64,000 nt of DNA from positions 3,789-67,788 of the forward strand of contig JAQUWY010000005.1 in assembly GCA_028692655.1 (NCBI GenBank). Reading direction: 5' to 3'. The notes under the pieces are model-generated. The model was not told where the DNA came from, did not search any database, and saw only the letters and a list, made by a program, of their open reading frames with translations. The DNA comes from Candidatus Omnitrophota bacterium (GTDB lineage: Bacteria > Omnitrophota > Gorgyraeia > Duberdicusellales > 4484-171). How positions within the stretch are numbered: the stretch's first letter is position 1; every line of letters starts with the position of its first letter. A program made the position numbers and the translations under genes. This document shows, piece after piece, positions 9,001-51,922 of this stretch.

Positions 9001-12000
9001 TGAAATTTATACCTTTTGCCTTTTATAACCAGCCATACGCTGTCATCAGGCAACTGTTGGAAATTACCCTCAGCCAGGATAATTCCTCCCTTTTTATATT
9101 TATGGTAATTAAGCACTGCTTGGCGGCCATTTTGGGGCATACTGCTGTTATAAACAATCACAGCGCCTGAATAAGACAATTTTTCTACTTCTCTCCAATC
9201 ATCTACCCGGTTAATCGTGGTGAAAATCCGGGAAATTTTCTCATTTCCGCGAACTATTGCTCCAATAACATCATTCCAGTCAGGAATTCGCTTCATCGAG
9301 CTAAACTCCTCTTTCTTAACCTCGGTTTCGTCCCGATCCTCAATTTTTGTTTTATCCTTAATCTCTTCCTGAGCCCCAACCTTCTGTTTGTGGTCATCAG
9401 CACTAGCCCCTTTATTTTCAAGCGCCTCCGGCAAATTTTGGCGGTTGGCATTCGGTAAATTTTCAGCTTTCTTCTCTGCGTTTTCTCTTCTTTCCACCGG
9501 GCTCAATCTTGCCGCCCTATCAACAAAATCTCTAAATACTCCCAAGGCTTGTTTTGGAATTATTCTAATAACTTCATCCTCATAAATAGCTGGTACGCCG
9601 GGATTTTCCCCCTTCTTAACACGCCGATTCATTCCATAATCATTTTCATCCATATTGTCGGAAATCCAGGGTTTAAAAGGATTTGAGGTTAAATCGTATA
9701 TCTCATAACTCGCGATTTGTGTTGGTTTGCTATTGTTATCGATAAAACTGAATACGAATACAGCCTCGATCAAAGGATGCCTTCTCTGCCATAAACTATT
9801 TAAAATCTGTTTTAAGGTCGCGGCCTGCAGGTCTTCTCTTTGTTTGCCTTTAACTAAACTATCTACACCGATTTCACCGATTATCAGCCTACTTAGTCCG
9901 AATTCCTTAAGGCGCTCTATATCTTTAAAGAGCGACTGGTCAGCAACCTGCTTTAAGCCATAATAGTTTACTGCTATATTATGTATACCGTTTTCGGCCA
10001 TAACTCTCATCTGCTCATCAGTAGGCAATCCGGCAAACCCTACGAACACTCCTTTAAATTCTTTTCCTTGTTTTGCCAATACCTCTTTGAGCCTTTTAGA
10101 AACAACTCCTAATTGAGTTAAAGTATCTTGAGTAACTGCCGAATACAGTTTTAATAAGGCTTGGTCTTCAACAGTTAAGCTTTGAGGGTCATTCTTTTGT
10201 TTTTCTACCAGCATGCGGACGCGTTCAAGCGTTTCTATGCCGTACATCTCAGCAATTATTGCCCGGGAGTTGTTGTAAGCCTCTACTTCTTCTTGAGATA
10301 ACGGCTGATTCTTGGTTTTCTTCTCAATCGCGGTTTTAACTATCTCTCTTGTGGTTTCATCTGGAATATACCTTAAATCATTTTCATCTAAATCCCTGCT
10401 ATAAACACCTTCCTGGAACCAGGAAGCCCTGCTTATAATCTTAGCTGTCTGTTCATCTTTGCTTAAAGCCGATCTGGAATTTTTAGATAAAAATTCCAAT
10501 ATATTCTTTTTTTCGATTATTCCATAATCATTCAAAAGCGTTATGTATATTTTTTCTGTAATTTCCGGCGGTAACTGCGCCGCTATTTCGCTTATGTATT
10601 TTATAAATTCTTCGTTCCCGTCTCTAAATAAACCTATGTCGATGCCTATCCTCTTACGGTCAAAAGTATTACCTATAATAAAGTTAGGAATTACATTCCG
10701 GTGGACCAATTCTTTTATGGCTTGAGCGCTTTTCTCCACATTTATATTCCCCTGGCCGTCACTTACAATCGGAAATCCATCATAGAAGCTGGCTCCCACC
10801 CAATAACTGGAATCGCCTCTGGCGCTGTCTATCAACTTAAATGCTGCTTTCTTGCTTTGTTCATTTTCCCAGCTAACAGGCATATCAACGGAAGCACCAA
10901 AAAGGATTGAATCCCTTCTGGGCATAACCGTATTTGCGCTAAAGCTCTCTAACGCCGGCACAGGGCCTATATTATTATGGGATGTAACACCATCCTGAGC
11001 GTCATCATCCTGGCCGGCAAAAGGCATCTGGCCGGTTATACCCATATAAGTAACGCCTGTTATCACAGAACCGGCAAATACGGCTAAGCCTAAGCCTAAA
11101 GCAATCTTCTTCCAATTGACAGGCTTAGCTTTTGACACTCGCTTTTCATCCTTATTCTTAACCCGGTTAAAAACACTTAGCTCTATCTCATCTAACTTAT
11201 CAAGGGCTGACAATGCAATGGCTTTGTATTTATTAATTTTATCGGTAGCCTTCTCGCCATTTCTTTTCTGATATTTAAACCAGGCCAATCTCAATTTTGC
11301 CCCAGCATAACTGGAAACTGCCGACTCATACCCGTTTAACGCTTCGCGCACCTTAGCTTCATCAATGTCTCTGCCGCTTAAGGCTGTATTTATCAGGTAT
11401 TTGTATATATCTATGTTGCTATTTTCAATAGCTTCTTCTATTCTTTTTTCTAATTGGTTATCTTCCTCTCCCAGAAGCCTCCTTAAGGCTTCTTTAACCT
11501 GCCCTCTGACTTGGCAGGAAGATATTCCTTGATTTTTCACTGCCTCTGCTACCTGGGTAACCACAAAATCTTCCAATCCGCCGATTAAATTATCCGCGGC
11601 CTTATCAATACCCACTGCGGTTCCAATAACTTTAAGATACCGTTTCAGGGCGATTCCAAAAGCCTCTTCAATTTTTTCCCATAAAACAGCTTTGTCATTA
11701 CCCTCCAGCCAATCTGAATACCCTGACTCGATAAATTTCTGATTGTCTGTTAGAATTTCTATAGTTTCTTCTTCGGTTTCTTTTGACTCAACAACTGAAA
11801 CCGGTTCAACGCCATCAGGTTTGCTATCCACGGGTTTTTCTACTTCTGTTTTTCTTCCTGCATCCGGCTCACCTTGCGGGACAACTTCAACAGGCTCTTT
11901 CTCTCTCCGGTCAAAAACACTTATCCATAACAATAAAGCAATTACCGGAGCGGCAAAAGTAAATAAAACCAGGTATCCTGCAGGTATAGAAAATATGAAG

Positions 12001-15000
12001 TAGCCTAATGCCCAAGCCAAGCCTAAAAATCCTGCGCCAGCATAAACAGATTTAGGTATATGTATATATGTCCACTCTTCTTTGGGTTCAACATTTTCTT
12101 CAGTGCTAAGCGCCTCGGCCATTGAGGCTTTAGTCTTTTCATCTTGAGTCGACGGTTTAGCATCGGCAGACGGCTCTTCCTCAGCAGCCAGCGGTGCCTG
12201 AACAGAAGGCTCAACAGATGGTTCTTCTTTACCCTTCCCTTCCGGTTTCCCAACTTCTTCTCTGTCTTTTTCCTCATCCATCGTCCCTCGTCTTTCGTCC
12301 TTCGGCCTTGCTGTTTCTGTCTTCTCTTGTCCCTTTGTGCCAACGGGTTGAGAAGTTTGTTTTTTCATCTGCTCAACATATTCTCTAGTTCCAACAGTAT
12401 TGCGTATTTTCCTTTTAATTAACCCATATCCAAGAAAACTTAGGAGCAAAATCAAAATGGCATAAAAAGCGTTGTCGGAAATTTTCCATTCATTTCCATC
12501 TTCCAATGCGGATTTGGAATCTGGAGTACCTTCTGGAGCTGTTTTCGATTCCTCAGTCAAAGGCCCTGCAACCGGCACCTCTTTGATGGGTTTCTCTTTG
12601 GTAGATGGCTCTTTCTCAGCAACCGGAGCTTGCTTGGCTGGTTTCTCTTCAGCTGGCGCTTTCTCCATGGTAGGCTTCTCCTCAACAGGAGGAATTACTG
12701 CGGGTTTCTCTTTAGCAGGCGGCGTGGGTTTCTTAACTTCAGGTTTAGACTCAATCTTTTCCAGCCCCTCCGGTCGTTTTTCTTCCTCTGGGGTTATTTC
12801 TGGCTCAACTGGCTCTGGCACTGGTATCACTTCTGGTGTTGGTTCTGCCTTAATTATTTCTGCGGCGGCCTTTTCTTGAGAAACTTCTACTAATACTGTT
12901 TGTTGGCGCCAGCGGTATCCTCCAAATATCAATCTGCGTATCGGCCCGCGGCGGCGCTCACAAACCCACCTATTTTCATATCTATATGACTGAGTATCTA
13001 CCTGCTGGCTTTGAGTGTGTTTGATTGGATCGAAAGTTTGATCAGCATAGCCATTAGAGTATGCTATTGGTTGAGCATAGGCCTGATACACCTGACAGCA
13101 ACAAGTCCTCCGCGGCCCAAAGCGCCTGAATAACCCGCGAGCTTCGGCATTTGTCGGTGCTATTACAGTCAAGCTTGTAATAAAAATCCCTAAACCTACT
13201 ATAATTTTACGTAACCACGATGCCTGTCGCAATCTCTGCAGAAGTCTTGTTCTTGCGGTTTGTGATTTTAGGACCTCAACTTTATTATCAGTTGCAAAAG
13301 AGGCCCCCTTGGGGGTTGGGGAGGCATGGGAGCCTCTCGCAACTTCATTATTATTAATTTTTATAGGATTTTGCTCATGAGTTTTGTCAGGATTAAGCAC
13401 CGCCCAGATTTCGTGGGCAAGGTCGCGGAAAGATACTTTGCTTTGAGAAAGGATTATGTGATTGGTTTTATTTCTATAGTAATTTGCAATTCCTAAATTC
13501 CAGGCCGGAGGCGCTCGAATTACTTTGATGTTTCCCAAAATTAAACTTATGAATAATCTTAAGGAATCTGCTACCCCCAAATATCTCAACGCCGGTAAAG
13601 CCATTACTATTGATGAAAGCTTTCTTTCTCTTGGAAAATTTTCTAAACCTATAGTTTGAACCTTTCTATTTATTTCTTCTCTAGAAGTCCCTTGGCTTGA
13701 AGCATCAAGCGGAAAAGATTCCGCTATTAAAAGCTCTGCCGCTTGCTTAAATTCTTTCACAAAAAATTCAATGTCTCTGCGAAAAGAACCGTTAGCTGCT
13801 GCAGGCACACTGGACAACATATTCTCAAAAATATCCCAATTGACAACTGTTCCTGATTCCTTAAGCAGGCCAATGTATGGCTTAAAAAGAAAACCCACTA
13901 ATTCAGAAATACTAGTTTCTCTATGGCTTGAGCCGTCATCTACTAAAACGAATTGGCCGGAATTTTCTTCTATCCTTAAATTACCGGCATTATAATCCGT
14001 TGGGGATTTACCTTCTAACAAAACATAGATAAGCCCTGCTGTAAAAAGAGCTTTTTGAGCATATTCCCTTTTCTTTTCCTTGTTTGTTTCAACCAAAATT
14101 AATAAATCAAAATCCTCTCCTTCTATATATTCCTCTGACATCATATGAATAATTATTTTCTCTTCCTCAAAAAGGCCAAGCGGTACCGTTACTTTAAGCA
14201 ATGAACCAACCCTTGGAACTGCTCGAACACTATCAGGAACACCGAACTCGCTTTTTCTTTGGTGAATCCTACTCATTCCTTCAAATTCCGGCCCTAATGT
14301 ATCTGTTAAGATCTTAGGAACTTTTAGTATAAATTCATAAGCTTTCCCGTGCACACCAGTTTTTTCCGAAAACATTGCCACTCTTACGCCATACACAAGC
14401 CGGGTTGTACCGTTAAACCCGCCTTCTACATTAAACAACGTTATTCTTTCAACATTCTCTATATTTATAACATCACCATGAATATCCCGGATGGAGTCTT
14501 CAATAAAATCGCCAATAGAATTCAAGTTAGAAGGCATCCTTAACCAATTTGCGATAAACTTAACTCTGCTGATATAGTGGTCACTAAGCAACTCTTGGAT
14601 AAATGCTTTTACTACAGGGTTGCTTCTCTGTCTAAGCTCTACCTGTAGAGCATCCACTTGCTCATGGTTTAAGCCGCCTAAAGCAGCAATAATTTCATGC
14701 TCTATCTCATCAAAGGAAGCTCTTTCCCGCAGATATACTATATTAAGAAGGTTGAATGAAGGTTCATCAAACCCTGGCGGCCCGCGACGAATAATGATAT
14801 CATCTAAAAGCTTAGCTTTATCTAAAGAAAGATTTTCCTGCAAGAATATAATTTTGTTTTGTACATTCCTAGAGAACTCATCGTCTATCGCATCATAAGG
14901 CTGCCAGCCTCCTAATCTTTGGCCAAGTGAAAGCCTGGCTTGTATAATTGTTAAATCTGCGTTATCAGAAGCATGATCATGCGGAAAAGATTTAATTCCT

Positions 15001-18000
15001 TTATGGATACTGGCAACAGGCAAAACAAAAGTAAAAGTCGTTCCGGGTGTGGTACGGACTCCTGAACTTATCATTTTCAGCGTCTGCATCATAGCCGGAA
15101 GCGCTAATACGGCTTCTTTGACTTCTTTTATCTGTTCGATATCGCTGAATTGGTGGGTTAGAGCGGCATACGCTACTCTTTCACCCCAGACATAACTCCC
15201 TGTATTCTGAGTTACATTGTATAATAACCGATGATTTGCCCCTAACACATCCAGTATATATCCCTGTACAACATTTACTGCCTTCCCAATGGCGCTTTTA
15301 TCGCCTTGGATTCCTTCTGCCGGATTTCGCGTAAAACGTTCTCTCATTAATTTTTCTAAAACACCTAAAATAATAACCATATCGATGGCTTCATAATAAT
15401 AGTCTTCAGCAGTATATCCAATAACACCAGGCTGATGATAAGGATCTCCCAAGGCTGCTCTTGATACACTGTCTATACGGTTAGCCCATCTTTTTGTTTC
15501 TTCTTCTAAAGTTACATACAATTCTCCTATATATTTACGCAAAACATACCCAACCTCAGGCTCACCAAGCATTGGCAATTCTTCAATTATGCCTTCAGTG
15601 AGCGAATCTATTTCAATCATTACTTCGGGCACCCGATAACTTTCAGCTAAACCAAGCCCCCTTGATTCACCTTTGCCTGAAATTCCCAAAACGAGCATTG
15701 CCTGGCGCCCGTCATACCCCGCCGGGATTAAAAGCTTCGCGGGTAAACCTTTTAAGTTGTCGGTGATAGCAATTCTAAGTTTTCCATTTCTGTCTATAGA
15801 CATACTGGCTTTGATTACAAGTTCATTAAGCTGTTTATTAGCTTCAGCCTCATCATAAGCGTTTCTTAAAACATTGGAAACAGCGTTCTCCAAAGCTATT
15901 GGATCAACTCGAATTAAATAATCTTCATTCAGTTTTTTATGGACTGCCAAATTAGCAGGACGCCCTATACGCGCCATGACCCAAGCGTTTTTGATAATTC
16001 TAATTACTTCTCTTATATTGACAAGCTGCGTTGTATCCTGGCCGGTAAAATGCCCATATCTATTATTCAAAATTCTTAAAACATCTTCAAAACCTTCCAG
16101 GGTTTCTTGGTACAAAACTTTAAATTGCCGGTTTGCCGTTAACCTCTTTGCTAATTCAGAAAATTTATTCTTCGCTTGAGTGATCGCTTTTATTATCCTG
16201 TTAAACTCTTCTTTCCATTCATCAACCTGAACTCTGCTTACAGGCTCACCCGGTATTATCGCCTCTTTAATTTGATTATGCAGTATTCTTAAAGCTCCTC
16301 GGCCGGCATATCCATTTTTAGCAAGAACGTTCTTTATCCGCTTTAATTCCGGTAATAAATCCCTAAGCTTGGTACGCCTGCCTAACTCTTCTATGCTATC
16401 AGTAATTACTCCAATCTTTTCGGCATTAAACAGCGCTATTACAATTTCGGTTGCCGCGCTATGTTCAAGGCTTCTTATAGCATAAGCGATTCTTTCCGCT
16501 TCTTTATCTGTAACCTTATCGCCGTCGGCCGCTGTATCTTTAACCTGCCCGCCTAATCGCTCAAGGAGCTCGCGGACAGAACTTTTATAACCGGTTATCC
16601 AACGCGCGGCCAACACATATAACCCAGAAGAACTTAGCCAGTCTTGCAATTCTTTAACTTGGCTATGCTCTAAACCGCCTATAAAAGCCAAAAGCTCGTG
16701 GCGAATAATCCATTCTTTTGTTTTTAAAAGCCACTGGTCCCTTAATTTTTGCTGGTAATACCACTTGGTATTATTAAACAAATTGGAATCAAAATACAAA
16801 GCGGTTGGATTTCCATAATTGTCAATACGCATGCAAGCGCCGCATTCAAGTCCGTCCACCTCAAATATCCAGCCCTCTCTTAACAATTGCGATAACTCCT
16901 CTTTCTTCTTCTCTGCAAGCGCTATTGCCTTAGCCATTTCTGGCGTAATATTCCCCACTGGCGTACCAATTTTGAGAACTAATCCTATTAATTCATCTAA
17001 TAAAGCATCGTAATTGCCTATTAATATTTCTGCTTGAGAACTGCCAAAGCGAATCTTTCGTGGCCCTTTATATTTGTTCAATAATGCTTCTATTTCTTCT
17101 TTTGCTCTCCCGTCAGCTGAAGAATCTTTGGCTGACTGTGTTAAACCAGCCTGCTTAAATAATATTCTCCTGGTAAAATCAAGCAACATTGTTAAAACAG
17201 GTATAATAAACCACAGCGGATTAAGTAAAAGGCTATTGGCCATCATCCAAATAATAATAACTGCCGCAGATATAGCTATTGATAAAGAATGGTTATTATT
17301 TTTTTCTACATTCGGATAGCTCAAAGGAGAAGCGTAAGGATTTATTTCTTCCGGTTGTTTTTCCTCCCTTCCTTCTTGTCCTCTCTTATTTACCTGTGCC
17401 CGCAAAATCCTATATGCCAAATAGCCTAAGCCTAAAACCACCACAGCAGCTATTATATAAGATAAGGCGGTTACCAAAGCCCCAGCAGATGCTCCAGTCA
17501 TACCCGCCTCTCCGGCAAAAGCAGTATTAGCTGCACTAACAACACCTAAGCCAAAAAAGACAGATGCTGTTCGTCCCAGAACACTTTCCACAACGGGGCC
17601 TGCTGTCTTCAGAGATTCATTTAATTCCACCTGACTAATTTTAGGTATCCGGTCTAAATCCCTACGGTTTTTTATGCTTCTTTTTATAAGTTCTCTGGCA
17701 GCATAGTCCGGCTGGCCGCTAACAAAAGGCAGTATCCCTTCAAACCCTTGACGGATAGGAACAAGATTCCAGTTATCCGGCTGTGTTAAGGCAACAACAG
17801 CAGCCAGCTCCTCAATGGTTAAAACTTCAACTATTCCTTCGCTAATACGCCCGCGCTTTTCTTCTATAGCCTTAATTTCGGCCATAGCTTTTGACTTATC
17901 ATCATTGGCTTCATCTGTAAATATTCTTTTAAATAATTCTTCCCTTTGCTTTTCTTCTTCGGCACCGGCCTGTAGCTTTCCTATTATTACTATGGCTTCG

Positions 18001-21000
18001 GCTATTTTTTTTATTTCTTCTAACAACTTTGTACTTTCTGATTTTATCCGCAATACCTCTCTTTTTCTATTGTTAAACGCAGCCGAAAGCCTTGGGTTAA
18101 GATTCAAATCTATATTATTGGAAATATTACTTAATATTTCTTCCGCATCAGAAATCTGCTCAATCACATCTTGCAGCATGCCTTGTAGAAGCTCTAAATA
18201 CTCCTTTGCATCATTTATATAACCTTTAGGTTTTGTTTTTCCAAATTCTCTTAGTAACTTACCCATTTCTCTCTTTGCAATCTCGGTTTGGCCCTCAACA
18301 TTGCCAAGAACACTATTAACCATATTTACCAATGCTTGAAAATCTTTCTCAGCCCGTTTTCTTTTATCTATTTGATCAATTCCTTCTTGTTTCTTCCTAA
18401 TGGACGCAATTACTCTTTTCTGCCCTTCATCGCTCAGACTTTCTGCCTTATGCATTATCTCAAATAATAAACGCTGCGCGGAAGCCTCAGCCGCGTTAAC
18501 AGCCTCAACTTCTTTTATAAGATTATTTACCGCTTCTTCTTCGCGGTCATTTACGTTTCCTTCAGCCTCAAAATTATCTCCTGAACCTGGCCGGCTTGCG
18601 TCAAGTTGTCTTGCTGCTATTTTTCTTCTTATATCCTCGCGTTTTCTTATAGCTTCAGCTAATTCTCCCCTGGCTTTTAGCAGGCTTCTTTCTCTTTCTT
18701 CCTGCAATTCTTTATACCCTTCTAATCTTTCATACTCCATCTCTCTGCTCTTTACTTCTAATATGAGCAAACGCGTTTTTACTCTGCTTATTTCTTTTTC
18801 AGCCGCAAAAACCTCCTCTTTTATGCTGTTTTCTTCCCGAAGTTTTTTTAGTTCCTTCTCGGCCTCCCGTAATCCGATCGTTTCTTTTGTAAACTTTCCA
18901 TCTAACTGAATTTTTTGAGGCATTTTGTTAGGCTCTAAATTTGCAAGTGCTATTGCATACCGGTTTATTATTTCTTCTAATTCGGCAATTCTTTTTGCGT
19001 TCTGGCTTTTTGCTTTTTCAATTCTACTCAGTAACTCTTTCTTAAAAGTTTTCTGTTTATTCACAATTTCAGCAATTTGTGTAAGAGTAGTTATTTGCAA
19101 TAAAGAAATTTCCCTTTCGATTTTCTCGATAAACTCTGGATTGCGTGCCCTTGCATTTTCTAATCGTTTACGCGCGCTAATTCTTGTACGGTTTTTAACT
19201 TCTAAAGCGTCCTTGCCTCTATATTTCAAAGCTTCTTTAATCCTGCCAAGGCCTTTACGTAATCTTCTTATCTGATGCCGCAATTCCCAAATTGTCTGAT
19301 TTATTTTATCCTTTTCCTCAATAAGTTCGGACAAAGTGCTTTCTTTATTTGGCTCAGATGCCGGATTCAAAGCAACAATATCTTTTTCCAACTTTGATAT
19401 CCTGGCTTCACTTTCCTTAAGCTCTTTGCGCATACTAGCCAATTTTTCCTTAACCTTCATTAACTCCCTAGCTAACTGTGTTTCTTTATAGTTTACGTTC
19501 TGCGCTTGCTCTGCGTTCTCTATATCCCCATATACTCTTTCTAATTCTTCTTCTAAATCTTTGATTAACTTTTCAAGACGCGCTTTCTCTTCATTTTCAG
19601 GCTTTAGCTTATCTTTTAACTTAGCAATTATCTCTTCAGGCGTTTCGTTTGATGGCTTTGCCGGAAGAAATGCTTCTTCTTTAGCTTTATCAGCTTTTTC
19701 AGGTTTTTTAGTTGGCTCGTTATCGTCTGATTTTTCTTCCGGCGGCGCTTGCGGTTTTTTAGGCTGTTTGGGGCTTTCTTTTGAAGCTTTAAAATCCCTA
19801 TTTCTTAAATAACTCCTTAACCAGGTTGCAGCAAGACCGAGAATGAATCCGGTAACAAACCCGCCAAAAAATGCAACAACATTAACTGTAGTAATATAAG
19901 CTGTTATACCGCCTACAATACCGGAAAAAGATGCCATAGGTGTGGTTGAATTTGAAGAATTTCTATTTTGACGTGATTTTTTTACTCTTAAGCCGGTAAA
20001 CATACCAGCCAATAGCCCAAGGATTGTGCCGATAATAAATGCAATCCATGGGTAATTTTTACCGGCAAGTTCTCGTTCAGCCTGTTTAGCTTTGATTAAA
20101 TTTTCTGCGGTTTCTTTTGTCTTCTCTGCCTTTATCTTTAGCTCATCTACAGCATCGGCAAAATTTCTTGCCGCCTCAGCGGTTTCTCTTGCCTGTCTGG
20201 CCATTTCTTCTGTGGCGCTCTTAATTTTCTGCCATTTATTTAAATCAGCTATTGCATCAGTAAGGTCTTGATTATATCTTTCTAAATCAGATTTTGCTTT
20301 CTCAATCTGGGCCTTTAACCCAGCAGCCCGTTTTGCCTTAACATTCTTATAGTTAGGATTATTAATTACCTGTTTTTTGCCTTGTCCTGAGCAATTGCAG
20401 GAGTCGCAAGGAACTGCGTTAATGGTTATTGATTTTATATTTTCCGGTAAAAACCTTAACCGAGCTTTTAATCTCTGTGATACCCGGCCAGGATGTGGAC
20501 TTTCGTAACGACGGATATTTGCCTTTACATTATCAATACTTATAGTGACCCTCAAGTAGCCTTGCCCCTCTCTTTTATCTTTCTCATTTATCGGCCTATT
20601 TAATTCTATTCTTGCTTCATTTTCTAACATTCCACTATAATCCTGCACTAAAATATCATAATATCCCGGGTTACCACCCTTAATAATCCTATCCACTTCA
20701 TTATCTGCACTGTCATAAGGATTGGGTGATTTTATAATAGTGTTGTACGACGGCAAAGCATAGAGGGTGTTGTCGTCCTTACCCGCTTGAGTAAGATTAC
20801 TCTTAAGCGTTTGTAATAGTGCTTCTGTTTTGCCTATTGATTCTTTTACTCTATCAACTCTGGCCTGAATAGCATCAACCTTAGCCTGTACCGCTTCAAC
20901 TAATTTATCAAACTTATCAGCAACTTTATCAAGCCTGTCAGCAACCATGCGCGCTTCAGTTGCTGTTACACCCAATTTTTTAATAATATCTTCTATCGCC

Positions 21001-24000
21001 TTAATTTTTGCGCGGACATCATCCTCGGCATTTTGCGAATCAACTGATGGCGTTGCCATTAACTTATCAACCGCTGCTTGCAATTGGTTTATTGCTTCAT
21101 TAGCTTTTTCAGATAACTTAACTGCTTCGTCTGCATTTACCTCTGCTTCTTTGGCTAAATTCTCGGCTTCAATTAGCGATACTTTAGTTTGTTCTACCTT
21201 TTCTTTGCCGGGAACTTCCCTTTCTTGTTGCTGGGCAAGCCTTTCATTGAGGCTAGTTTTATCTTTAACTAATTGGGCTTTTTTGCGGCTTAATTCTGCT
21301 ATTTGCGTTTTTATTTTTCTTATTTGTGATTGAATATGTTCAACTTTTTTAGTACCGCCTACGGATTCGGCCTGTACATATTCATAACGCTGCGTTGCAG
21401 CATTTCTTAATCCGGGAAAGATTGCTCCTTTTCCTCGTGAAGCCCTTCCCCTCGACCATCTAGCAAGCAAACCGTTGCGGACATATCCACCGTCAATAAC
21501 AACCTCTTTTTCTTCCGTCTCTTGAGCTTTTCTTAAACTTTCCTGTAACCTATCTAATCTTCCCTGCAGTTCCGATATTTTCGCAATTATCTCTTGTTGG
21601 CCTTCGTCCAAATCGCCCAATTTTTCTTTCAGTACTTCTGTTCCATTTTGCGCATCCTTCAAACTATTGTTTAAAAGCTCTTCTTCTCCCTTTAATTCCT
21701 CTACCCTATTCTTAAATTTTTCTGCTTCTGTAGCATAGATTTCGGCTTTCGTTTCCACATTATCAACTGCTTCATCCAAACCTTGTAAAGCTCTTTTTAG
21801 GTCTTCTTCTGCGGTTTTTACATCTATTATCGGTTTATTATCACTTTTAGACACTGATGGCTGGTGACGGGTAGCTGGTGTGAGTTTTTTATCTTCGGAA
21901 ATCTGCTTGTCCCGTGACAAAGTTTTTGCGGGTTGTGCGCTTTTTTCAGCAGCTGGTAATTTTTTCGCTGGCGGACCTATCGCAGGCGGTAACTTAATCT
22001 GAGGAGAAATGATAGGCCCTTGCTGAGTAGGTAATTCCAACGATTTTGATGATGTCGGCATAGCCGGCGCTATTGGCCCTTTATCTATCCCTGGCATTAC
22101 CGGTTTTACTTTTAACTCCGTAGATGTTTGAGCTGGTTTCGTTGGCTCTGCTTCAGGTTGTACTGGTTTAGTTTTAGCTACAGGTGGTTTTGGCTGAGTA
22201 GTTTTCGGGGCGGCCGGCCTCGCTACCGATGCTGGGACTGCGGCTTTCGCTTCTTTAGTTGCAGCTTTTCTAGCAGCCAATCTTTCTTCTTTGGCTTCTT
22301 TAGCCAATCTTGCCTTCTCAACGAGAGCTTCTTGGGCAGCTTTTTCTGCGTCCACTCTTTCTTGTTGGAGCCTTGCTGCTTCAGCTTGTCTGGCTGCTTC
22401 TTCTACGCGGGCTTTTGCGACAGCTTTCATTGCTTCGGCTTGAACAGCCTTTGCAGTAGAAACCGCCTCTTCTAAAGAATCGAATGAATGCTTGCCGGTT
22501 TTGTATTCATAGCCTATATAGATACTTATACTCGGGCCGGCACTAGTGGCTCTTGTTTCAGCCATAACTCTGGCCTGTTCTCTTTCTGCCTGACCCATAT
22601 TTAAGAACTCTTTGCCGCCGACACTGTAAGTAGCTTTTCTTTCTACTTTGATTCCTAAACCAGGATGTTGTGTGTCCACCCTTTCTTGCTCTTTCCGTAA
22701 AGCATCTGCGATTTTCTGTCTTTTCTGCTCAATTCTCTCTAGGGCTTTTTTGATTGTCTCTTTTATTTTATCTTTTACTTGGTGGCTAACTCTTTCATCG
22801 GTTTTGAAACTATTAATAATTTGTACTGCGCCATCAAAATTTTCATGGTCAACCGCCAAACTCAACGCTTCTTCCCAGCGGCTTTGCAATTGTTCCTGAG
22901 CTTTCCGGTCTGTTTCTGCTTGCTTTTCAGCATCTATTTTGCCTCTTAGCTTTAAGCCTCTGGCCGTTGAACCTTCTTTAGATTTAACCGGCTGTGTATT
23001 TTCACCAACCTCTAGTTTAACTGCCACCTCAAAGCTTTTGTTACGAGTTTTTTCTGGTTTGCTAACCATTACTTTTTTATTCCTAAGTTTAATTAAAGAA
23101 TTACCAATAGTCCCGGCTATTTGATCTTTATTTCTTTCTCCTACCATCGTAAGCTCAGGTTTGTTTTGGCCATCTACAACAACTGCAATATAAGGAATAC
23201 TTTCAACTCCATAACGCTGAATGACAGAAAGGTTACTTTCTTTATCTGCATCAACCCTAACCAAAAACACTTCACCCGGATAATCAGCAACAACTGCTTC
23301 AAGTTCAGGAGCAGTTTCTCTGCAAGGACCACACCACGATGCCCAAAAGTCTATTAAAATTACTCTTCCCTTTCCTTCTGCTCTGAGAAATTTATTCAGG
23401 GTAGTTAAACCTTCAGCATTAACAATATTGCTGCTTACCCCATCTATTCCGGAAATATCGTCAGCGGCTTGGCCAATATTAGTCAAAACCGGCGAAGCAA
23501 GTATCAGCGCTCCAAACAAACCAAGCACAACAGCTTTAAACACCGGACGGGCGGCAAGCCTTCCAAATACAGTAGAAGGGGTATATTTTTCTTCTTTTTC
23601 TTCGCTCAAGCCAAAATCCGAATGAATTTTCTCTTTCCCTCCTTCAGTAGTTGATGACAATACCCTCTTAGACCATGCCATATATTCAAAATCATCCGGT
23701 TGTTGTTCTTCTTCAACCTGTCCTGTGGCTTCCCCTTTTATTGTTTCTCGAATAGTGCTCCAATTTAGGTCAGATTTCCTTCTTTCTACCTCGGGCTTCT
23801 GCGCTTTAACAGCTTTGCTTATCAGCCAAATGGCCGTAACGGCCGCTAAAATAATTAAGGCCAATTTTGCCCACAAAGGCATTGTGGCCACAGCTACCGG
23901 TTTTGCCGCCCCCATTAAAAATGGTGTGATCCCTGTTAACATCAACGCCGAAATTTTGCTATGGACTGCTTGTCCTGAGCGAAGTCGAAGGATGGACTGT

Positions 24001-27000
24001 GAACTATCGACTGCCTTGGCGCTGCCGCGGCCAACCGCCATAGCCTGATCTACTGCAGATTGATGGGCATAGACAGGAATCCCCTCTAATCTGCGTAAAT
24101 CTGCGTTTCTTTCAATCTGCGCTAATCTGCGTCCCTCAGCTGAGATTAATATTTCTGACGTGATAGACTGGAGCGGCTGAGTAACACGCCTCAATTGACC
24201 TTTTGATATTTCCGGCCTCAGCTTCATCAAGGAGCTTGAAGTTCTCTCTAATCTGCTGTTTAACATCACCATAGGAGTTGATAAGGTAGTTTTCAATCCT
24301 GCCCCTACTGTCTCTTGCTGAGGCAAAAATCGTGCCGTCAGTTGTTCCAACCACGAAATGAGTGAAGATAAGTTTAGTAACCATGACAAACCTCCTTTTG
24401 ATTCGTATAGTGTATGTCGTATTTCGTATGTCGTTAAAGTTGCACTGGAGGCCCCCGTAGGGGTTTGGGGGGAGGCGTGGGAGCCTCCTGCAACTTTATT
24501 TCGTATGTCGTATATCGTATATCGTATATCGTTAGGTAAGGAAAGGATAGAAGAAGCCGCTTTACTAAGAGAGCTTTCTCCGCCTACACGCCGAGATTCC
24601 GCCACGGAAGAGCTTCGACGGGCAAGCATAGATAGACCCTTAGCAAGCGGCATTATACTTATTCGTGGAAATTTGCGTTTTATGTCTGCAGGTAAGGAAG
24701 ATACAAAAGACAAGATTTTTGTAAACTTGTAGCTTATAACATCTAACTTGTGACTTTTTACAGGCGGAGCAAGGCTGTTGGCATTATAATAAGAAGACGA
24801 ATCTCTTGCTTTTGCAAGATTAGTTAATATATTAAAAAGCTTTACTACTCTCTTCGGCAGAATTATCTTTTTGCTTGCCGAAGCGCCGCCATTACCTGAA
24901 CCTTTGCCGTTTCCAGAACCTTTTCCGCTGCCCGGAGCTTTTGAGTTACCGGACATACCACTAGCGCTTCCGGACGCAGTCTTCGCACTTCTAAAACCGG
25001 CATTTTCGCCTGATTTTCCTTGTAAAGAGCCTATTTTTCTTCTAATTTGACCAATTTTACGGCCAATAGTTACAAAATCAGCTTTGATTTTACCCTCTGT
25101 TGCCTTGATCCATCGCTGCGCAAAGGTAATCGCGCGACGGACCAACCCGACACCCGGCGAACCTGGGCCATTTATATAATCAAAACCTGACCGCTTGTTG
25201 GCTTCTGTTGACGATAAGTCAAAGGTTGTGCTCCAAATAGCTTTGCCTACCGGAGCCGCATAAGCATCGGCAACGGTAAACATTCCTTTTATGCCTTCAT
25301 AAAACGTATTTGCTGCTCCTAATATTAATATTGTCATTGGCTTTGGCCCGCCTAAAGGAGCGCTTGGCGGTAACGGCAATGTTATGGGCCTGGTTAAAGG
25401 CGGCAAAGCAAATGGCATACCTGTATCATATATTATGGGTTTTTCCGGGCCCAAAGGCGTTGCTGAAGTAACTATCGAAGAGCCTACCGGGCTTTGATCA
25501 GCTTGATTTAGGCCTAAAGCCTCATCTACGTTTATGCCTAAATCCCGGGCTTTTTTCGCCGCCTCATCCATATTATGTTTTGCCGTACTTAAAGACAAGG
25601 CTCCTTTTTCGCCTTTTTGGGAAGCTATATAATCAGAATAGGCATTTTTTAGTGACTGTCTAGCTGACATTCGCTCAGCACTCTCTGCCATATTATGAAC
25701 TGTACCGGCGGCATCGGAGCTAGCAACATCAACCGCACCGGTTCTGGATAAAGCCTCAGTTAAACCGTGCTCTAATTCTGCTAAACCGGCATCTTGAGCT
25801 AAATAGACAGTGTAAGAACCGTCACCGTTGGCCAGAGTAATTTCTTTATCGCCGCGAGAAGTAAGTTGTTTAGCGCTTAATCTCACAACCTTTACCGGAG
25901 CGATTGCTTCAAACTTATTAGCCCTCTCCTGTATATATATAGGTAAGGAGATTTCTTCAGATTCTGCAATCACCTGTTTGGCTTCATCAATATCTTTTTG
26001 GGCCATTCTTCCTTTTTGCCCGGCACCAGCGGCAAATGGATCATCGTCGGACAAAGTTGTTGTATGAGCGCCTTTCTTTGGGCCAGTTTCAGGTAATCTT
26101 TCTGACGGCTGAAAAGCCGCTCTTTCTGCTAAAACTCTCTCCACCAAAGCTTCAAAAGAATCCGGGGGCACTTCTCCATAAAGTTTATCGTCTAAATCGG
26201 TTACTTTAGATAGGAGCTCTCTGAACTTATCTAAAATTCGACCTTCAACCTCCACGCCTTTGTTTTTAGCTTCACCGAAGACAGACTTTAATTCCTTATG
26301 TAAATCTAAATCGGGGTAACCTGCTGAATCTTGCCGTTGACGCTCAATATCATCTAATACTTCCTCAATATATTCAGTCCAATAGACGCTCTCATCTCTT
26401 TCACTAGCTGTCAAATTGCCCTCTTGTGCTTTTTTATTTCTTATCTGCTCAGCAACCTCAGAAAATTCTTCAGCATCACTGTCAATAAACTCATCCGGCG
26501 TAAACTCACCTAAAATAGCTTCACCCCGGCGTAACAATTTGCCTAAACCGACAGCTTTGGCGATGAAATCTTTTTCTGGCATATCCTGGATTTGAAGAAC
26601 TTGCGGCAAGTCTTCTTCTTCGCCCAGAACTTCGAATTCGCGTAGAATTTCTGTCCTGGCCGCGGCGCTGTCCCTAAATGTATCATTTCCTTCTATAGCT
26701 ATGCCCAGCCAGCGCATAAGTGAATTTAATTCGGCTAAATTACTCCGGTACGCGTCATCAGATAAACTCTGGCGAATATCCGTTATTCTTTTCTCGGATT
26801 GTTTAATAGCTTTTTGTATATCCGAAATTTTTTGTTTCAGCTCTTTTTCTCTTGTAACCGCCTCAAGTTGCTCATCAGCTGCTTCTGAACCATAGAATGA
26901 ATCTATAGCGACAGGTTCCATCGCTTTTTCTGCCAGTTGCCTTTCTATAGCTTCCTGCTCTTTCTCTAACCGTTTTTTTGCATCAGCCCAAGCTCTGCTT

Positions 27001-30000
27001 TCTAATCCTTCTTCTCTCAAGCTCTGCCTTGTGCTGGTGTAAATACTTAATTCTGCATCCAGCCAATCTTTATCTTGCAAGGACATGTTAGCCTTTAGCG
27101 CCTTCACAACTTCTTCTATCCGCCAATCTAACCAAGCTTCTACACTAAAGACTTTAATGTCCTTTGCTTTTTTATCTTCGCCTCTGTACAATTTCAATCC
27201 TGCATCTGTATCTCCAATAAATTTAACATCCATAGCTCGTTGGAAATTGGCCAATTCTTTCTTAATATCTTCAAGGCTTTTATCTTTCCATTGATTAAGA
27301 AATTCTATGTCCTCGCCGGCTTTCTGAGTTTCATCATCTAAAGCGCTTCTAACCGCCGGTAGATAAATATCCCTTATAAAACTATCTTCTTCCTCGTGGG
27401 CTTTTCCTATAAGCTTTTCTATATTCTCTTGGGCTTCTGCTAAAGCTTCTTCTCTTTCTTTCAGCAGTTCAGCCACGCTATCAGAAACAGCCTGTTTATG
27501 TTCATCGTTGTCGCTGCGATTAGGGTTATAATCCGTCAGCTTCTTAACCTTTTGATTACGTAATTTGCCTGAAAGAGTGTCTTTTGATTTTTGCTTGACT
27601 TCCTCTAAGGAAAAATGCAGTAATCCTTTCGGTAAACTTAACCGCCCATCATCCTTAAACTCCCGCTTATAAGCACCTTCTAATTTTCTTACCCAATTAA
27701 TCTGTTCGCTTAGTCCACTCTCATTGACAGAAGGATTAATAAGCTCAAGAATCCGCATTACTTCATCTTTCTTTTCTCCACCCAGTAGAGCCTCTAATTC
27801 GTCTATGGTTTCTATATCCATTGACGGCATTTCCGAAACGCCTTTCCCGTAATTATCTTTAGCATAGGCCATCTTGATTTCATTTATGGCTTCGCCATTA
27901 GCACCGGCACTGCGATAACCGTTAAGACTTGAATTAACATACATCAGGCTTTCTAAAAAAGTTTCCGAGTCAGTTCCATTTAATATAACATCCGAATAGG
28001 CACGTAATTCTTTTTGCTTGCTGCTTACCTGTAAATCCTTATCTAAAGCATGTCTTGTCTCATGGCGCAATACTGACATTGTTAATAATTTTTCTACCTC
28101 TTTTTGTGTAACCCTACCTTCACCTCCATTGAGCTTGCGCCATTGTCCGGTATATTCGCTATTTTTTTCTTCATTCAAAAATGCGGCAATATTGCCAGCT
28201 GTTTCCTTTATCATCTCAATAAAGATGCTTATTTCATTATTGTGCGGATTATATTCGCCAAGCTTATCAGTATTGCCATTCTTCACTTCAACTTGGACTT
28301 TCCTTGAACCGTCAACATCAAGCATAGAAGTTTGTTCTGCCCCGCTTAAAACCCTCTCTGCTAACTCCTCTAACTTATCATCTACACCTGCTAACTCCTC
28401 CAATTCTCCGGTATCAGCCAAGCGAGCTAACCGAACGGCAGACCGCATACCTTCAATTAAATTTTCTACGCCTGTGGAACCTAAATTTGCGGTATCCATA
28501 TGCAATAAGCTGTTAACATCAGTGCCGGAGAGCTGGCTGAAAAGTCCTGCCTTAGCTTTAGCCGCCTGAAAATCGCTTCGTACACTGCCGGCACCATTTA
28601 TTCCTGCAAGGCGCGTGAGTTTTCTTTCGGATAAACTGTTAAAAGCTCCCAATAAAAGCAAGCCGCCTCCGCTGTTATAGCCCATAGAAACTATATTGCT
28701 AATAGAAAATGCACGTAGGCCTTTAAAAAATCCTCTTCCGAGCAAAGGTGTTGGATGTGCAGTAGCCCAATTTATACGTTTCTGTAATTTGTTTATACGC
28801 TCTTCTATTTGTTTCACATTGCTGAGGGCATCTTCATATTTATTATTTTCTAAAGAAGCCATTATTATCCTGTTTAATAAATATTTTAAGTAGTCTATAT
28901 TTTGCTTATCTTCGGTAACAGACATCCACCTTTTAATTCTTAAAACGTTCCAACCGCGTATTTTTTTATCTGCCGACAACCCATATCTTTCCTGCATTTT
29001 GGCGGCTGCAGCCAAGCCTCTGTTAATAGAAAACCTGTCGGCATTGCCTGAGCCGCTTAACCTTATTAATGATGTCCGTAGGGCTTCTCCTTGTGAATCG
29101 ATTTCGTTTTCATCCAAAGGCCCCCTGCGGTTTCTCCATATAGAGATACCTGCTACTAATGCCAATCCGCCAAATGCCAACAGCGTAGGAATGAGATAAT
29201 TTTCTCCTGAGTCTGGCTGGTTAGGCATATCTTTGAAAGCCTGGTTTAAAGCCAATGGCAACAATGAAAGAGCATAGCTAGCTGATGTTGTTGAAGGATA
29301 GAGCGAAGATTTATACACTTTTTGCTGCAGCCCTTTTACATATTTATCAAGCTGGCTGACACTCATATCGGAAACTTTTTTGATTGCCCTACGAGAAAGG
29401 ATAAGACGATTCTGGCGGTCATTGATAAATCTTGCAACAAGGTTATCGTCCTTATCTGATTCGGCCTGCCGTCCAAGAGCCCAGTTTAAGCCTTCAGCTA
29501 AAGCCTGCTTCACTTTTCCGTCACGAAACACCATGCCAGAGACGAATTCCGTTGGATAACTCATAAACACATCTCCGACCAAACCGTCGGCCTGCAACCT
29601 TTTTTGTGTTCCCTGGTCTAAAACAGCAAACCCTCCGGATATAGCTTCAAGGCTGCCAAAAGAAGAAACAGCGGGATTCATTAAAGCTGCGGCTAAATCA
29701 GCCGTATCACGACGCTGTTGTATAGTCATTGTTTTATTCTGGAAAGCTTCGTTTATGATATCTATTGCCTGCTGGGCATATTGGGGAGCGGATAGGCCTT
29801 TAGCTAATTTGCTATTTGATCCGGTTATAGCGGTTTGAATATCTGTTAATACCTGGTTTGCTGATGCATTAGGAAAGTATGCTTTTACAGTTTGAAATAA
29901 TTCAGGTGAACCGCGTGTACCATTAGAAAGCATAACGGTATCCATCTGCCTGTATATTTCGGCTTTATCTTCAAAAGACAATTTATCACTCCCGGAAGCT

Positions 30001-33000
30001 TTTCGCGCGGCTTCGACTGTTTCTAAAGCCTTATCCACGGTCTTTGAAACCCTGGCACTTCTTGTAATATCTCCTTGAACCTGGACAGTGCTTGAAAGCA
30101 CTGTTTTAGAAAAGCCATCAAATATCCTGGCAACATCAGCGATACTGTAAGCGTCTGAAATAGAATTTTTACCGGTTGTGCCATTTTCATACACCGTGCC
30201 GCTAACAACCTTAGCCGCTTCCGCTTTTAACCAGTTTGCCTGCGCCCGGCTGATAGCCGATACTTTACCGCCGGCTTCTTCTATGCGCCCTAATATGTGC
30301 TGTGAATACTCAGCGATATCCTTACTTACTTTCCTGATTCTGTCTTCCCCTTTTACATTATAAGGAGATGCTTCTAGATCAGCTATATACTTATGTTGTA
30401 TAACTTCATTGAATATATTTTCTATGTATTGCCGTTCAACAGGATTGGCGGCCCGGCCAAGCATTTCTTTCAATGGCTCAATGAGCTGGCGCGAGTAACC
30501 TGCCTCTCGGGCCTGATGCAAAAGAGCCTGAGAAGTCTTAATAACTTCTAATCTCTGAGAATTTCTTAACAACTCTTTTGTCTTTTCCCTGGAGCCTCCC
30601 TGTTTACCTGCGGTAGCTTGATGTATTCTCAGTAAATATTGTCCGGAGCTGGTAATATCCTTTATTTCTTTCAAAGTCCCTCTATCAGTATTATTGATAT
30701 TCAACAAGTTATCTCGATCATAAAAAACTACTCTCTGGCCTGACTTAACTTTATCGCGGTCGTTTCTGTTGATTGCCTGAAGAAGCTGTGACTCTGGGAA
30801 TTTTTCACCGTCGGCAATAATTAAATCACGGCCAACCCTGACACCATCTTTAACTTTATCTTCAAAACTATATCCTGTGGCAACTCGAATATTAGCTAAA
30901 ACAAACTTACCGGCATTTTCTGCCAAAGAAAGGCTAACTATATCATCAGGTTTTTTACTGCCATATACTACCTCAATTTCCTTATCTTTAAATCTTTCTC
31001 TTATCGCCAGTTCCAACTTAGTCATAAGCTTTGGGTCTTCCACTATAAGCAGCAGCCCATTTTCCTTATTGGGCCTTGCTTCTAGTCTTTTCATAATCTC
31101 ACCAACTCTGTCTTTTGAGCCAACCCTGACCACCTGTGCATCAAACTTTGTCTCGCTAATACGCTCAACCGAGCGCCCTAAATTCATTCTTAATAACATC
31201 TCTATGCCTTCGGGCGTACCGGTAAAGCCTAAAGTCGAAGCCGTAGGCTTAAACTTCAGCATTTCCGATAAAGTAGCTTGGTTCAACGTCCGGGTGGTAG
31301 ATAAATCCTTGATTTTTAAGCCCTCTTTTTCTCCTAAATAAGCTAAATAAGCCGGGTCGCTTAATACACGGTCTGCCTGCTCAACTCCGCCTTCCCAAGG
31401 AATAATATCCGTTTTGCCTTTTCGCTGCCCAACACCATAATCTACGCCAAAGCGGCTGCGCTCAGCACGTATATAAGCGTGAGCTAAATACTCATTTACC
31501 CCTTCTGCCTTCATTGCTTTTTTTGCCGCTTTGTTAACCACAAATTCACCGCTTTGTTTATCATAATAAAGGCCTGGCTTACTTTGAGACTTAAGAATCT
31601 CCTTCTTATCGGTGTTATTTTCATTTTTGAATAAAACATCCCGCACAAACTTACCGGCTCTATCCAGCTCAGCTTGTATAGCTTGTGTTCCCGCGCCTTT
31701 TTTATCTAAAATCCCCGCCAACTGTTCAATAACAGATACCTCGCCGCCGCCGACGATGTAACTGCTCCTATCGGAAAGCGGAACGTGAATTTCATCTACG
31801 CGTATGCTATCTTGGTTGTAAACGCGCTGTATGAAATCCCGATCAGCGCTGTTACGCAGATGGCCCAGAGTCGGGTGGTCAAAAACAACAATCAACGAAT
31901 TGTTTCTCAAGGCGTGTTTTACTTTTTGAGAGTTACTGCTCCAGTTACGACCATCAACAAGCTTTAATCCGAATTTTTCTAGTAATTGGTTTATTACAGG
32001 GTCCTTCATCATCTTATCGACCTCACCCGCACGCACAACCCAAAGCTGATTAGCTTCGGGAAACATCGCCTTTCTCATAATCATTTCAACTGCTCCGCCT
32101 ACAGTCTTACCGCCGCCGGCTTCTAACCCAACATTTTTATCTCCCAACAAGGAAAGAGCCATGCGGACTTGTTCTAAACCTTTCTTTCCGAATTCTTGCA
32201 ATTTAGCTGCTCCTAACTCTTTACCTATAATAGCATAAGCTTCATCCATAATCAGGCGTAAAGCTTTTCCTACCTGTTCTCCGGTAACAGGTTTGCCGTT
32301 TTCGAATATATTTTCGATACCTTTTTCTCTACCACCGTTTTTAAATCCCTTAACAACTTCACCTAAAAATGCACTATGGTCGGTGCCTTTCTTAAGTTCT
32401 AACTCTAGAGTGCCGTTTCTAACATTTAACAACAAGTTTTTCGCATCTTTACTTTCTAACGTAAAAACTTCTTTTAAAACACTACGGCGTTGAAAATAGT
32501 CACCTACCCCTTTATCTTCCTTGAATAGTTTTACTGGATTGCCTTGACTATCCTTAAGTTCAATTACGCCTTCTTTATCATACTGGTTTTTATACTCTTC
32601 CCACTTTTTCCATCCGTCTTTATTGAATTTGCCGTCTTTACCAAATATTTCGCCATCAAGATTACGCAGGCCTATTTGTATGCGTATATCGCTGGTACGC
32701 ACCCCGATCCTGCGGCCGTCTTTTAATCTAACTTCAATGAGCCCTTTATCTCTAACTGTATAGTGCCTTAAAAGCTCACCCTGGTCAGCCGCTTTATTCA
32801 AAATATAGTTCATAGCTGTTTCTCTACTGGGTATACCAAGCAAAGGGTTGTCACTTATATATTCAATTGCCCCAATCTTTTCAGTCCTAGCTAATTCCCT
32901 GTCAATAATTCTTTGCCGAGGTGATATTGCTCTGGCTTTCGCTTTATTTTCACTCTTTTCTATATCGAATTTGTATCTTTTATTGACAAAATCTTCGGCA

Positions 33001-51061: not shown

Positions 51062-51922
51062 TTACCGGATGCCGGTGAAGATGCCTTGGCGGACAAAGCG
51101 GATAAGAATCGGGCCGGCAACAACAATCAGGATTACCGGCAAAATGCAGAAAATAAGGGGTATTAGCATCTTTAAAGGAGCTTTCATCGCCTGACGTTCA
51201 CCGCGGTGAAAACGGCGCATACGGGTGTCTTCTGAGAGGATTCTGAAGGTTTCCTCAACCGGAGTACCCATCCTGTCGGCCTGAACCAAGATTCTGACAA
51301 ATGATGTAACATCGGGGATATCAACCCTCTTAGACATATCTCGCAAAGCTTCAACCCGGGGCTTGCCAACATTTATTTCTTTTAACACCAAGGTCAGCTC
51401 TTCAATCATAGGGTTTACTGCAACCTTATCAACAACCCAGCGCACTGCCGCCATAAAATCTAACCCTGCCCCTACGCAAAGGCCAAGCAAGTCTATCGTT
51501 TCAGGCAATATTCTGCCTATCTGAAATTTACGCTTTTTGACTTTAGAATTAAGCAGCATATCCGGCAAAAGCAGGCCAAAAAGAAAGGCCCCTAACAACC
51601 ACCACATATTTTTAACGTCGAATAAAAACAAAAGCAAAGGTATGAGTATAGCCAGAAGCTCCTTGGCTCCTAAAAACTCAGCCGGGGTAACCCTCCAACG
51701 AGCAAGATACATCTTGTGAAGTAAAGGTTTTTCCATACCGAAAAGTTTAATTAAAATCGCGTTCAACGGTGCTAAGGGCAGCAAAAAAGGGGTAAAAACA
51801 GAGCCCTTTTTGTCTTTTACCGTGTCACTAAATACTGAAACCGTATCCGGGGGTTTGGGGAAAAGGCCAATAAAGATAACGGCAAAACCTAAAATTAAAA
51901 TTACGTATAGAAAGGTCAACAT
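51062..51922 (-). CDS. tadC: Type II secretion system F-domain protein, TadC-like pilus platform protein.
   Basis: 286 aa with multiple TM helices and T2SSF-type conserved blocks (..LPETIDLLGLCVGAGLDFMAAVRWV.. ..VQADRMGTPVEETFR..). Confidence 0.8.
   Translation of the reverse strand: MLTFLYVILILGFAVIFIGLFPKPPDTVSVFSDTVKDKKGSVFTPFLLPLAPLNAILIKLFGMEKPLLHKMYLARWRVTPAEFLGAKELLAILIPLLLFLFDVKNMWWLLGAFLFGLLLPDMLLNSKVKKRKFQIGRILPETIDLLGLCVGAGLDFMAAVRWVVDKVAVNPMIEELTLVLKEINVGKPRVEALRDMSKRVDIPDVTSFVRILVQADRMGTPVEETFRILSEDTRMRRFHRGERQAMKAPLKMLIPLIFCILPVILIVVAGPILIRFVRQGIFTGIR

Follow-up and report, generated by a model that had tools for sequence, protein, structure and literature searches.

We have analyzed a stretch of 64,000 nucleotides from a Candidatus Omnitrophota bacterium (assembly GCA_028692655.1, contig JAQUWY010000005.1, positions 3,789 to 67,788 of the forward strand), called here the window, in which a thioredoxin (Trx) domain is found inside the reading frame of a giant membrane protein. 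The minus-strand frame between window positions 3 and 42773 runs through 14,257 codons without a stop, in DNA of 41% GC, and extends past the left edge (the start of the window), the C-terminus lying beyond it. With the first ATG at 42731, the giant open reading frame (ORF; 3..42731, minus strand) codes for at least 14,243 amino acids. We number residues along the whole frame, residue i being at window position 42773-3(i-1), and all the features of the protein given below are on the minus strand. The host reading frame is a real gene, as indicated by the 14,257 stop-free codons and by a ratio of nonsynonymous to synonymous changes (dN/dS) of 0.245 in the comparison with an ortholog that is described below. 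Hydrophobic segments, about 20 in number, are scattered through the protein. When all 14,257 residues were scanned with Pfam, no family besides thioredoxin was found above its curated cut-off, and because of this the multi-enzyme character that the first-pass annotation had attributed to the giant protein is unsupported by profile searches.

The thioredoxin domain (23064..23426, residues ~6450-6570) matches PF00085 with an E-value of 8.6e-19 and 67.9 bits (gathering cut-off 23.5) over positions 19-101 of the 103 of the profile. Related profiles of the clan (Thioredoxin_2, Thioredoxin_8, Redoxin, AhpC-TSA) score near or below their own Pfam cut-offs, with PF08534 (20-24.8 bits, cut-off 26.6) and PF00578 (18.4-23.4 bits, cut-off 26) both under them. 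The best NCBIfam model was the thioredoxin TIGR01068, with 74.1 bits; this is under the equivalog cut-off of 96.8, and therefore the domain is not callable as a housekeeping TrxA. The models of TrxA (PRK09381) and TrxC reached 48.6 and 60.7 bits against cut-offs of 138 and 125, respectively. A phmmer search against the PDB gave 227 sequences at E<=1e-6, with alignments of 83-88 residues and with the thioredoxins of Staphylococcus aureus (2o7k, E 1.1e-16), Streptomyces and Thermus at the top. Also among the good matches was 3hxs (E 2.8e-15), which we take to be the periplasmic thioredoxin TrxP of Bacteroides fragilis.

The active site reads DFWASWCGPCR, with the CGPC tetrapeptide (Cys6481 and Cys6484) at 23322..23333, and the conserved cis-proline, Pro6527 in ESIPYIA (codon at 23193..23195), is presumably equivalent to Pro76 of the E. 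coli thioredoxin. With both DFWASWCGPC and SIPY present, the WCGPC site, the buried Asp and the cis-Pro are all intact. In a 40-sequence alignment (A1) the columns D71, W73, W76, C77, G78, P79, C80 and P123, and also an A, are invariant in 40 of 40 sequences, and the domain carries all of them. The AlphaFold2 (AF2) model built from A1 has a per-residue confidence (pLDDT) of 84-95 in the core and the order beta1-alpha1-beta2-alpha2-beta3-alpha3-beta4-beta5-alpha4, that is, the classical five strands (model positions 46-49, 67-73, 98-104, 124-129 and 137-140) and four helices (52-62, 78-92, 111-116 and 145-166). The best 50 Foldseek matches of this model in the PDB were all thioredoxins, mostly with target-normalised TM scores of 0.77-0.93 and, at the top of the list, of 0.83-0.93; the best structural matches were thioredoxins of 103-111 residues, and the identity to the S. 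aureus protein was 35% over a 111-column alignment. Profile search, PDB matches, AF2 and Foldseek thus support the thioredoxin fold well beyond the CGPC tetrapeptide from which the first-pass annotation had started. The domain is a complete classical thioredoxin fold and the assignment is secure. The peptide GKGRVILIDFWASWCGPCR, read at that stage from the minus strand, was also found there, although at 23319-23375 and not at 23321-23377, which is 2 nt out of frame. The span originally given to the module, 23150-23681, is translated without stops and has an internal Met as its first residue (ATG, 23679-23681), and it lies, as had been claimed, embedded in the stop-free giant frame.

On the N-terminal side of the domain, we identified a candidate membrane hairpin (residues 6277-6322, 23808..23945) composed of a weak helix, LMLTGITPFLMGAAKPVAV (6277-6295, flanking K/R 3/1), and a strong transmembrane (TM) helix, LALIILAAVTAIWLISKAV (6304-6322), with 2 K/R on its N side and 5 on its C side. 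It is followed by a highly charged loop of 88 residues (6323-6410, 23544..23807) with 15 K/R, predicted to be cytoplasmic from the K/R-rich flanks of the two helices that border it; the loop includes the internal Met (residue 6365), 46 residues ahead of the next hydrophobic segment. This segment (residues 6411-6430, 23484..23543) is signal-peptide-like by its hydrophobicity and flanking charges: the stretch VFKAVVLGLFGALILASPV (6411-6429) has a Kyte-Doolittle value of 2.13 and 3 K/R on the N side with none on the C side. Its anatomy comprises an n-region RLAARPVFK, an h-region AVVLGLFGALILA of 13 amino acids and a c-region SPVLTNIGQA, then ADD (through residue 6436), with small residues at -3 and -1 of the putative cleavage point between GQA and ADD. 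Only ~20 residues separate the signal-like segment from the thioredoxin fold.

On the C-terminal side the chain continues as a K/E/A-rich and probably alpha-helical stalk (residues 6571-7334, 20772..23063), with 11.6% K, 11.0% E and 12.7% A over ~760 residues and ~2.3 kb, in agreement with the more than 1 kb of Lys/Glu/Ala and Pro-rich sequence reported at first. A Pro-rich stretch (residues 6845-6981, 21831..22241, 19.7% Pro) may form a hinge within the stalk, for which no Pfam family was found, nor any homologs in a sequence search with the thioredoxin plus the putative coiled coil. Then comes a small non-helical region (residues 7335-7481, 20331..20771) with the motif CDSCNC (Cys7456, Cys7459 and Cys7461), whose cysteines are the only ones besides those of the thioredoxin in the TM-bounded segment to which both belong. 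It has no Pfam match above cut-off and no homologs among 5.8 billion proteins, and was dropped as a recognisable substrate domain. After more helical sequence, the next strong TM helix (residues 7577-7595, 19989..20045; Kyte-Doolittle 2.17; 3 K/R on the N side and 5 on the C side) closes the thioredoxin-bearing segment, of 1,147 residues.

We have searched for relatives of the giant protein and of the module. We searched 1.84 billion representatives exhaustively with HMMER and found a single true relative, P0121, a fragment of 3,591 amino acids that fills a 10.8-kb JGI contig (3300014204, Ga0172381_10007515) and is colinear with residues 2834-6377 (3,544 residues), with 81.5% identity. This contig stops at residue 6377, 34 residues before the hydrophobic segment. 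By blocks, the identity was 29% with indels over residues 6201-6276, 85% in the hairpin (6277-6322) and 95% in the part of the loop that is covered (6323-6377). A hypervariable and indel-rich stretch (locus L002, residues 6001-6276, 23946-24773), 29-49% identical to P0121, is thus found between blocks of 85-95% identity, and in this variable region upstream of the hairpin two short motifs (residues ~6075-6125, ~24400-24560), LPNDIRYTIYDIRNKVAGG and TTYEIRHTLYESKGG, resemble each other. Beyond P0121, the exhaustive search gave generic thioredoxin matches only, of at most 2,166 amino acids. A word-indexed search with hairpin and thioredoxin returned just ordinary or multi-thioredoxin proteins (<=567 amino acids), the search with thioredoxin plus coiled coil, aimed at K/E-rich giants, gave 14 matches, all of <=920 amino acids, and two metagenome scans with flanking peptides found no relative of the module. 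Among the nearest single-domain matches there were stand-alone WCGPC thioredoxins with a signal peptide, a lipobox or an anchor (P0248, P0239 and P0258).

Compared with the classical thioredoxins (S. aureus 2o7k, E. coli TrxA), the domain has the same fold, order of elements, WCGPC site, buried Asp and cis-Pro, and shares as well the Pro five residues past the second Cys and the Gly before alpha4. The difference lies in the setting, since those are free proteins of ~12 kDa and here we find an internal module at about residue 6,450 of more than 14,000, after a signal-like segment. In this respect it resembles TlpA, ResA, CcmG/DsbE and TrxP, in which a hydrophobic anchor or signal is likewise followed by a Trx-fold domain with WxxWCxxC. 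The TlpA-like fold adds an N-terminal beta-hairpin and a central insert to the thioredoxin core. The AF2 model has neither, only the classical elements. The scores of the family models were also far from their cut-offs: 36 bits against 123.15 for DsbE (TIGR00385), 34.7 against 230 for TlpA (NF047696), 32.6 against 170 for ResA and 29.4 against 210 for StoA (altogether 25-36 bits against 123-330 for the DsbE, TlpA, ResA, StoA and DsbD models). Besides, the known proteins are of ~20 kDa, whereas this module is embedded in a giant one and has no partner shuttle in the window. We read the module as one that works like TlpA, ResA or TrxP without membership in those families, from which it is set apart by the widely missed cut-offs and by the lack of the fold additions. 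The working principle that we propose for the module, with recharging by a shuttle of the CcdA/DsbD type, is that of such envelope thiol-disulfide reductases (background in PMC8945050).

The interpretation toward which we lean, with a confidence only slightly better than even, is that the module is a redox-competent thioredoxin within a giant multi-pass membrane protein, acting as a tethered thiol-disulfide oxidoreductase of the envelope, and that it derives from an absorbed pre-thioredoxin gene. The charged loop of 88 residues would stay in the cytoplasm and the thioredoxin would be exposed on the extracytoplasmic face, near the membrane, from where the chain would run on as a stalk of ~900 residues (helical, Pro-rich, and with a small globular piece) before re-entering the membrane at residue 7577. 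The tethered thioredoxin, probably a reductase, would receive electrons in trans from a membrane shuttle of the CcdA/DsbD type encoded elsewhere. Their acceptors would be disulfides or sulfenates in envelope proteins, in surface proteins of target cells, or in the CDSCNC motif that lies in the same segment as the thioredoxin. That a redox function has been retained is argued by the cysteine content. Cysteine accounts for just 18 of the 14,257 residues of the giant protein (0.126%), whereas its share is 0.72% in the 16 neighbouring ORFs and the base composition by codon position would predict 1.45%, and in spite of this depletion (about 6-fold with respect to the neighbours) both active-site cysteines were kept. 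The cysteines of the protein are clustered: CSGPNC (605/610), WCGPC (6481/6484), CDSCNC (7456-7461), ECGAC (8644/8647), CCC (9891-9893) and WCYC (11275/11277).

Regarding topology, the K/R flanking the three bordering helices (2/5 at 6304-6322, 3/0 at 6411-6429 and 3/5 at 7577-7595) all fit an arrangement with the loop inside and the thioredoxin outside. Because of this agreement with the positive-inside rule, we consider the thioredoxin domain as probably, although far from certainly, extracytoplasmic and membrane-proximal. The n-, h- and c-regions of the segment before the thioredoxin also speak for it, as does the conservation of the hairpin and the loop in the ortholog P0121 (85-95% identity, with 29% in the 76 residues that precede them). 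The same orientation results when the weak helix 6277-6295 is taken as the hairpin partner of the strong one, and also when the marginal segment before the thioredoxin is taken as non-inserted.

Several observations weigh against this interpretation. The count of helices upstream is ambiguous, the outside location needing either the weak hairpin helix, with an insertion sum of ~+6.6, or a single breach of the positive-inside rule. The segment before the thioredoxin is of marginal hydrophobicity (insertion score ~+2; both are approximate sums of the Hessa type), and the TM helix that the first-pass annotation had placed before the domain is there as a hydrophobic segment ~20 residues upstream, of doubtful strength as a membrane helix. 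Calls of localisation and topology on Omnitrophota giants have been found unreliable and unstable (10.1101/2023.11.21.568195). None of the other 16 ORFs in the window was recognised as CcdA/DsbD-like, nor was a Cys-bearing TM bundle found in the giant protein, whose TM helices carry no Cys except Cys57. The closest matches, both by sequence and by structure, are thioredoxins of the cytoplasmic type and not TlpA, ResA or CcmG. The conservation seen in the ortholog does not reach the module, because the contig ends ahead of it, and no other giant protein with a thioredoxin module appeared in the word-indexed, HMMER or thioredoxin plus coiled coil searches.

Some of these points would be accounted for if the thioredoxin faced the cytoplasm, as an ordinary thioredoxin driven by NADPH and thioredoxin reductase and tethered at the inner face of the membrane, where it would act for cytoplasmic portions of the giant chain or for partners nearby. 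This is possible but in our view rather unlikely. The resemblance to cytoplasmic TrxA-type proteins speaks for it, and so does the sequential count from the N-terminus when just the four clearly hydrophobic helices are considered (49-67, 4527-4545, 6304-6322 and 6411-6429), which puts the thioredoxin inside, with three positive-inside violations. Also, predictions place most of the chain on the cytoplasmic face in 46% of the long proteins of Omnitrophota (10.64898/2026.06.07.730766), and West-Roberts et al. judge some of the "extracellular" calls unlikely (10.1101/2023.11.21.568195). However, the positive-inside rule would be broken at all three of the bordering helices, the 88-residue loop with its 15 K/R would need to be translocated, and the segment before the thioredoxin resembles a signal peptide with an N-in/C-out orientation.

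The origin of the module was approached by its codon usage. We counted the codons ending in G or C (GC3) and took as expectation the value given by the amino acid sequence of the domain and the codon usage of the whole gene. On this basis 41.9 GC-ending codons would be expected in the thioredoxin domain (residues 6450-6570), but it has just 25 (z -3.4), and no other 121-codon window of the gene departs as far from expectation. The low-GC3 island extends over the thioredoxin domain together with the signal-like segment and the internal Met ahead of it (residues ~6340-6610, ~22950-23750); a second low-GC3 region is found near residues 12600-13000. The module has the look of a pre-thioredoxin gene that once stood on its own and was then absorbed into the giant ORF, a reading suggested by the stand-alone WCGPC thioredoxins with signal or anchor mentioned above and with which the lowest GC3 of the gene is consistent. 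The capture would not be very recent, since the start of the island (internal Met and loop) is 95% conserved in the ortholog. We find it quite improbable that the captured gene is a recent evolutionary passenger, without specific role and possibly variable among strains. The coincidence of the GC3 minimum with the domain would be expected in that case, the related contig breaks just ahead of the module, and neither the 1.84 billion representatives nor the two metagenome scans contained a relative that bears it. Against this, all the catalytic and structural hallmarks are intact, the two cysteines survive in a protein so depleted of them, and the conservation of the island start is that of an older acquisition.

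To the tethered oxidoreductase that we favour there is a more speculative variant, to which we give small credence, in which the giant ORF is a polyprotein cut at internal signal peptides. The segment RLAARPVFKAVVLGLFGALILASPVLTNIGQA, followed by ADD, would be recognised by Sec and cleaved by signal peptidase I, releasing an envelope protein of ~1,150 residues with a thioredoxin head, a helical and Pro-rich stalk and the TM helix 7577-7595 as C-terminal anchor. During attachment, surface proteins of prey or host that are stabilised by disulfides would be the targets of this exposed reductase, and the near lack of Cys (0.13%) would protect the giant protein from its own reductase. Two other signal-peptide-like segments with small-x-small motifs make such internal processing conceivable, one at the N-terminus, MRVIAFFVLFCFVYQDMVSA followed by AAG (from frame residue 47, 42564-42635), and an additional internal one, RLRQASWLRKIIVGLGIFITSLTVIAPTNAEA followed by RG (residue ~9854, 9854-9880; 13134-13214). 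Finally, that the thioredoxin is made separately, from the internal ATG at 23681 or through a mis-assembled or chimeric join, seems highly improbable: the in-frame Met 46 residues ahead of the hydrophobic segment and the compositional shift at the module would suit it, but independent translation is unlikely, because no Shine-Dalgarno-like motif precedes that ATG, and a chimeric assembly is unlikely too, because the frame is uninterrupted for 42.7 kb, the ortholog is colinear over 3,544 residues up to and beyond the internal Met, and a chimeric join would hardly fall in frame.

A possible second thioredoxin-like motif is found much farther along the protein. The sequence DYWANWCYC (residues 11269-11277, 8943-8969) echoes the context of the thioredoxin active site, D[FY]WAxWC, a pattern expected ~1e-6 times at this composition (a rough estimate from residue frequencies), so that chance is very unlikely. 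For the region around it, BLASTP matched 10 residues and Pfam gave nothing even at E<=5; hhalign aligned 14 columns with a probability of 46%, and a single-sequence AF2 model had a pLDDT of 36, which is uninformative. A second thioredoxin fold at 11269 is thus unsupported by Pfam, hhalign or AF2, and the motif may be a relic or belong to a very divergent CxC domain; if the protein were processed as a polyprotein, it would be the relic of another captured module. A weak similarity between the C-terminal half of the thioredoxin and residues 12617-12699, with an E-value of 0.15 when the whole protein was searched, was rejected as noise. Elsewhere in the giant protein, a sub-threshold match to HATPase_c (PF02518, 23.2 bits against 26.4) covers residues ~8957-9046 (15636-15905), this family being among the most frequent ones of the published Omnitrophota giant proteins (10.64898/2026.06.07.730766). 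The sole internal repeat detected is a tandem duplication of ~185 residues (11902-12085 against 12101-12270; 5964-7070) with 66% identity.

Upstream of the giant ORF the window has 16 minus-strand ORFs (43640-63972); most of them match no family, and many carry a hydrophobic segment at the N-terminus. Pfam identified among them two T2SSF (TadB/C-like) genes (51062-51922 and 51950-52792) and a Tad/TadG-like gene (PF13400; 54723-56138) with 12 Cys, all on the minus strand. Contig JBAYNQ010000209.1, from a metagenome-assembled genome of Candidatus Omnitrophota, matches the gene upstream of the giant ORF with 99% identity, and the exact look-up of one neighbour gene found no record.

Giant proteins of Omnitrophota have been described as membrane-threaded mosaics with hundreds of Pfam families; their genes run to tens of thousands of codons and often lie beside T2SS/Tad-like loci, and the proteins have numerous TM helices, few recognisable domains and poor conservation (10.1101/2023.11.21.568195; PMC10066038; 10.64898/2026.06.07.730766), and 916 long proteins of the phylum have been catalogued (10.64898/2026.06.07.730766). 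The protein analyzed here resembles the known ones (the 39,678-amino acid protein of Velamenicoccus archaeovorus, and the Archaeovorin and Dockerin types) in phylum, in its length of more than 10,000 amino acids and in the scattered TM helices, and likewise in the few recognisable domains, the poor conservation and the Tad/T2SS-like neighbours. In contrast with the Archaeovorin and Dockerin types, no SecA_DEAD, HEAT, glycosyltransferase, dockerin, TSP3 or C39 domain was found at E<=0.01 in the 14,257 visible residues. Thioredoxin is not mentioned in the main texts of the three works (10.1101/2023.11.21.568195; PMC10066038; 10.64898/2026.06.07.730766) or in the part of the supplementary text covered by our search, which did not include the domain tables. 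The combination of a thioredoxin and an Omnitrophota giant is therefore undescribed in the available literature text, and is a modest extension of what is known. To call it unusual, as was done at first, overstates the case: the setting is somewhat unusual, the domain itself is ordinary, the giants were already known as mosaics, and anchored WCGPC thioredoxins are common as stand-alone proteins.

A thioredoxin behind a membrane anchor is by itself textbook biology. The Omnitrophota giants, however, are among the longest polypeptides known and are almost wholly unannotated, and this thioredoxin, as the sole domain recognised by profiles above threshold in 14,257 visible residues, is among the few experimental handles on them: a domain of 12 kDa that can be expressed alone and for which there is a standard activity assay. 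Because it lies beside a signal-like segment, it can be used to test cleanly the topology of the giants, which is disputed, and also whether they are processed. If it is true that the thioredoxin faces outward, redox chemistry would join adhesion and cell-wall degradation among the roles proposed for these proteins.

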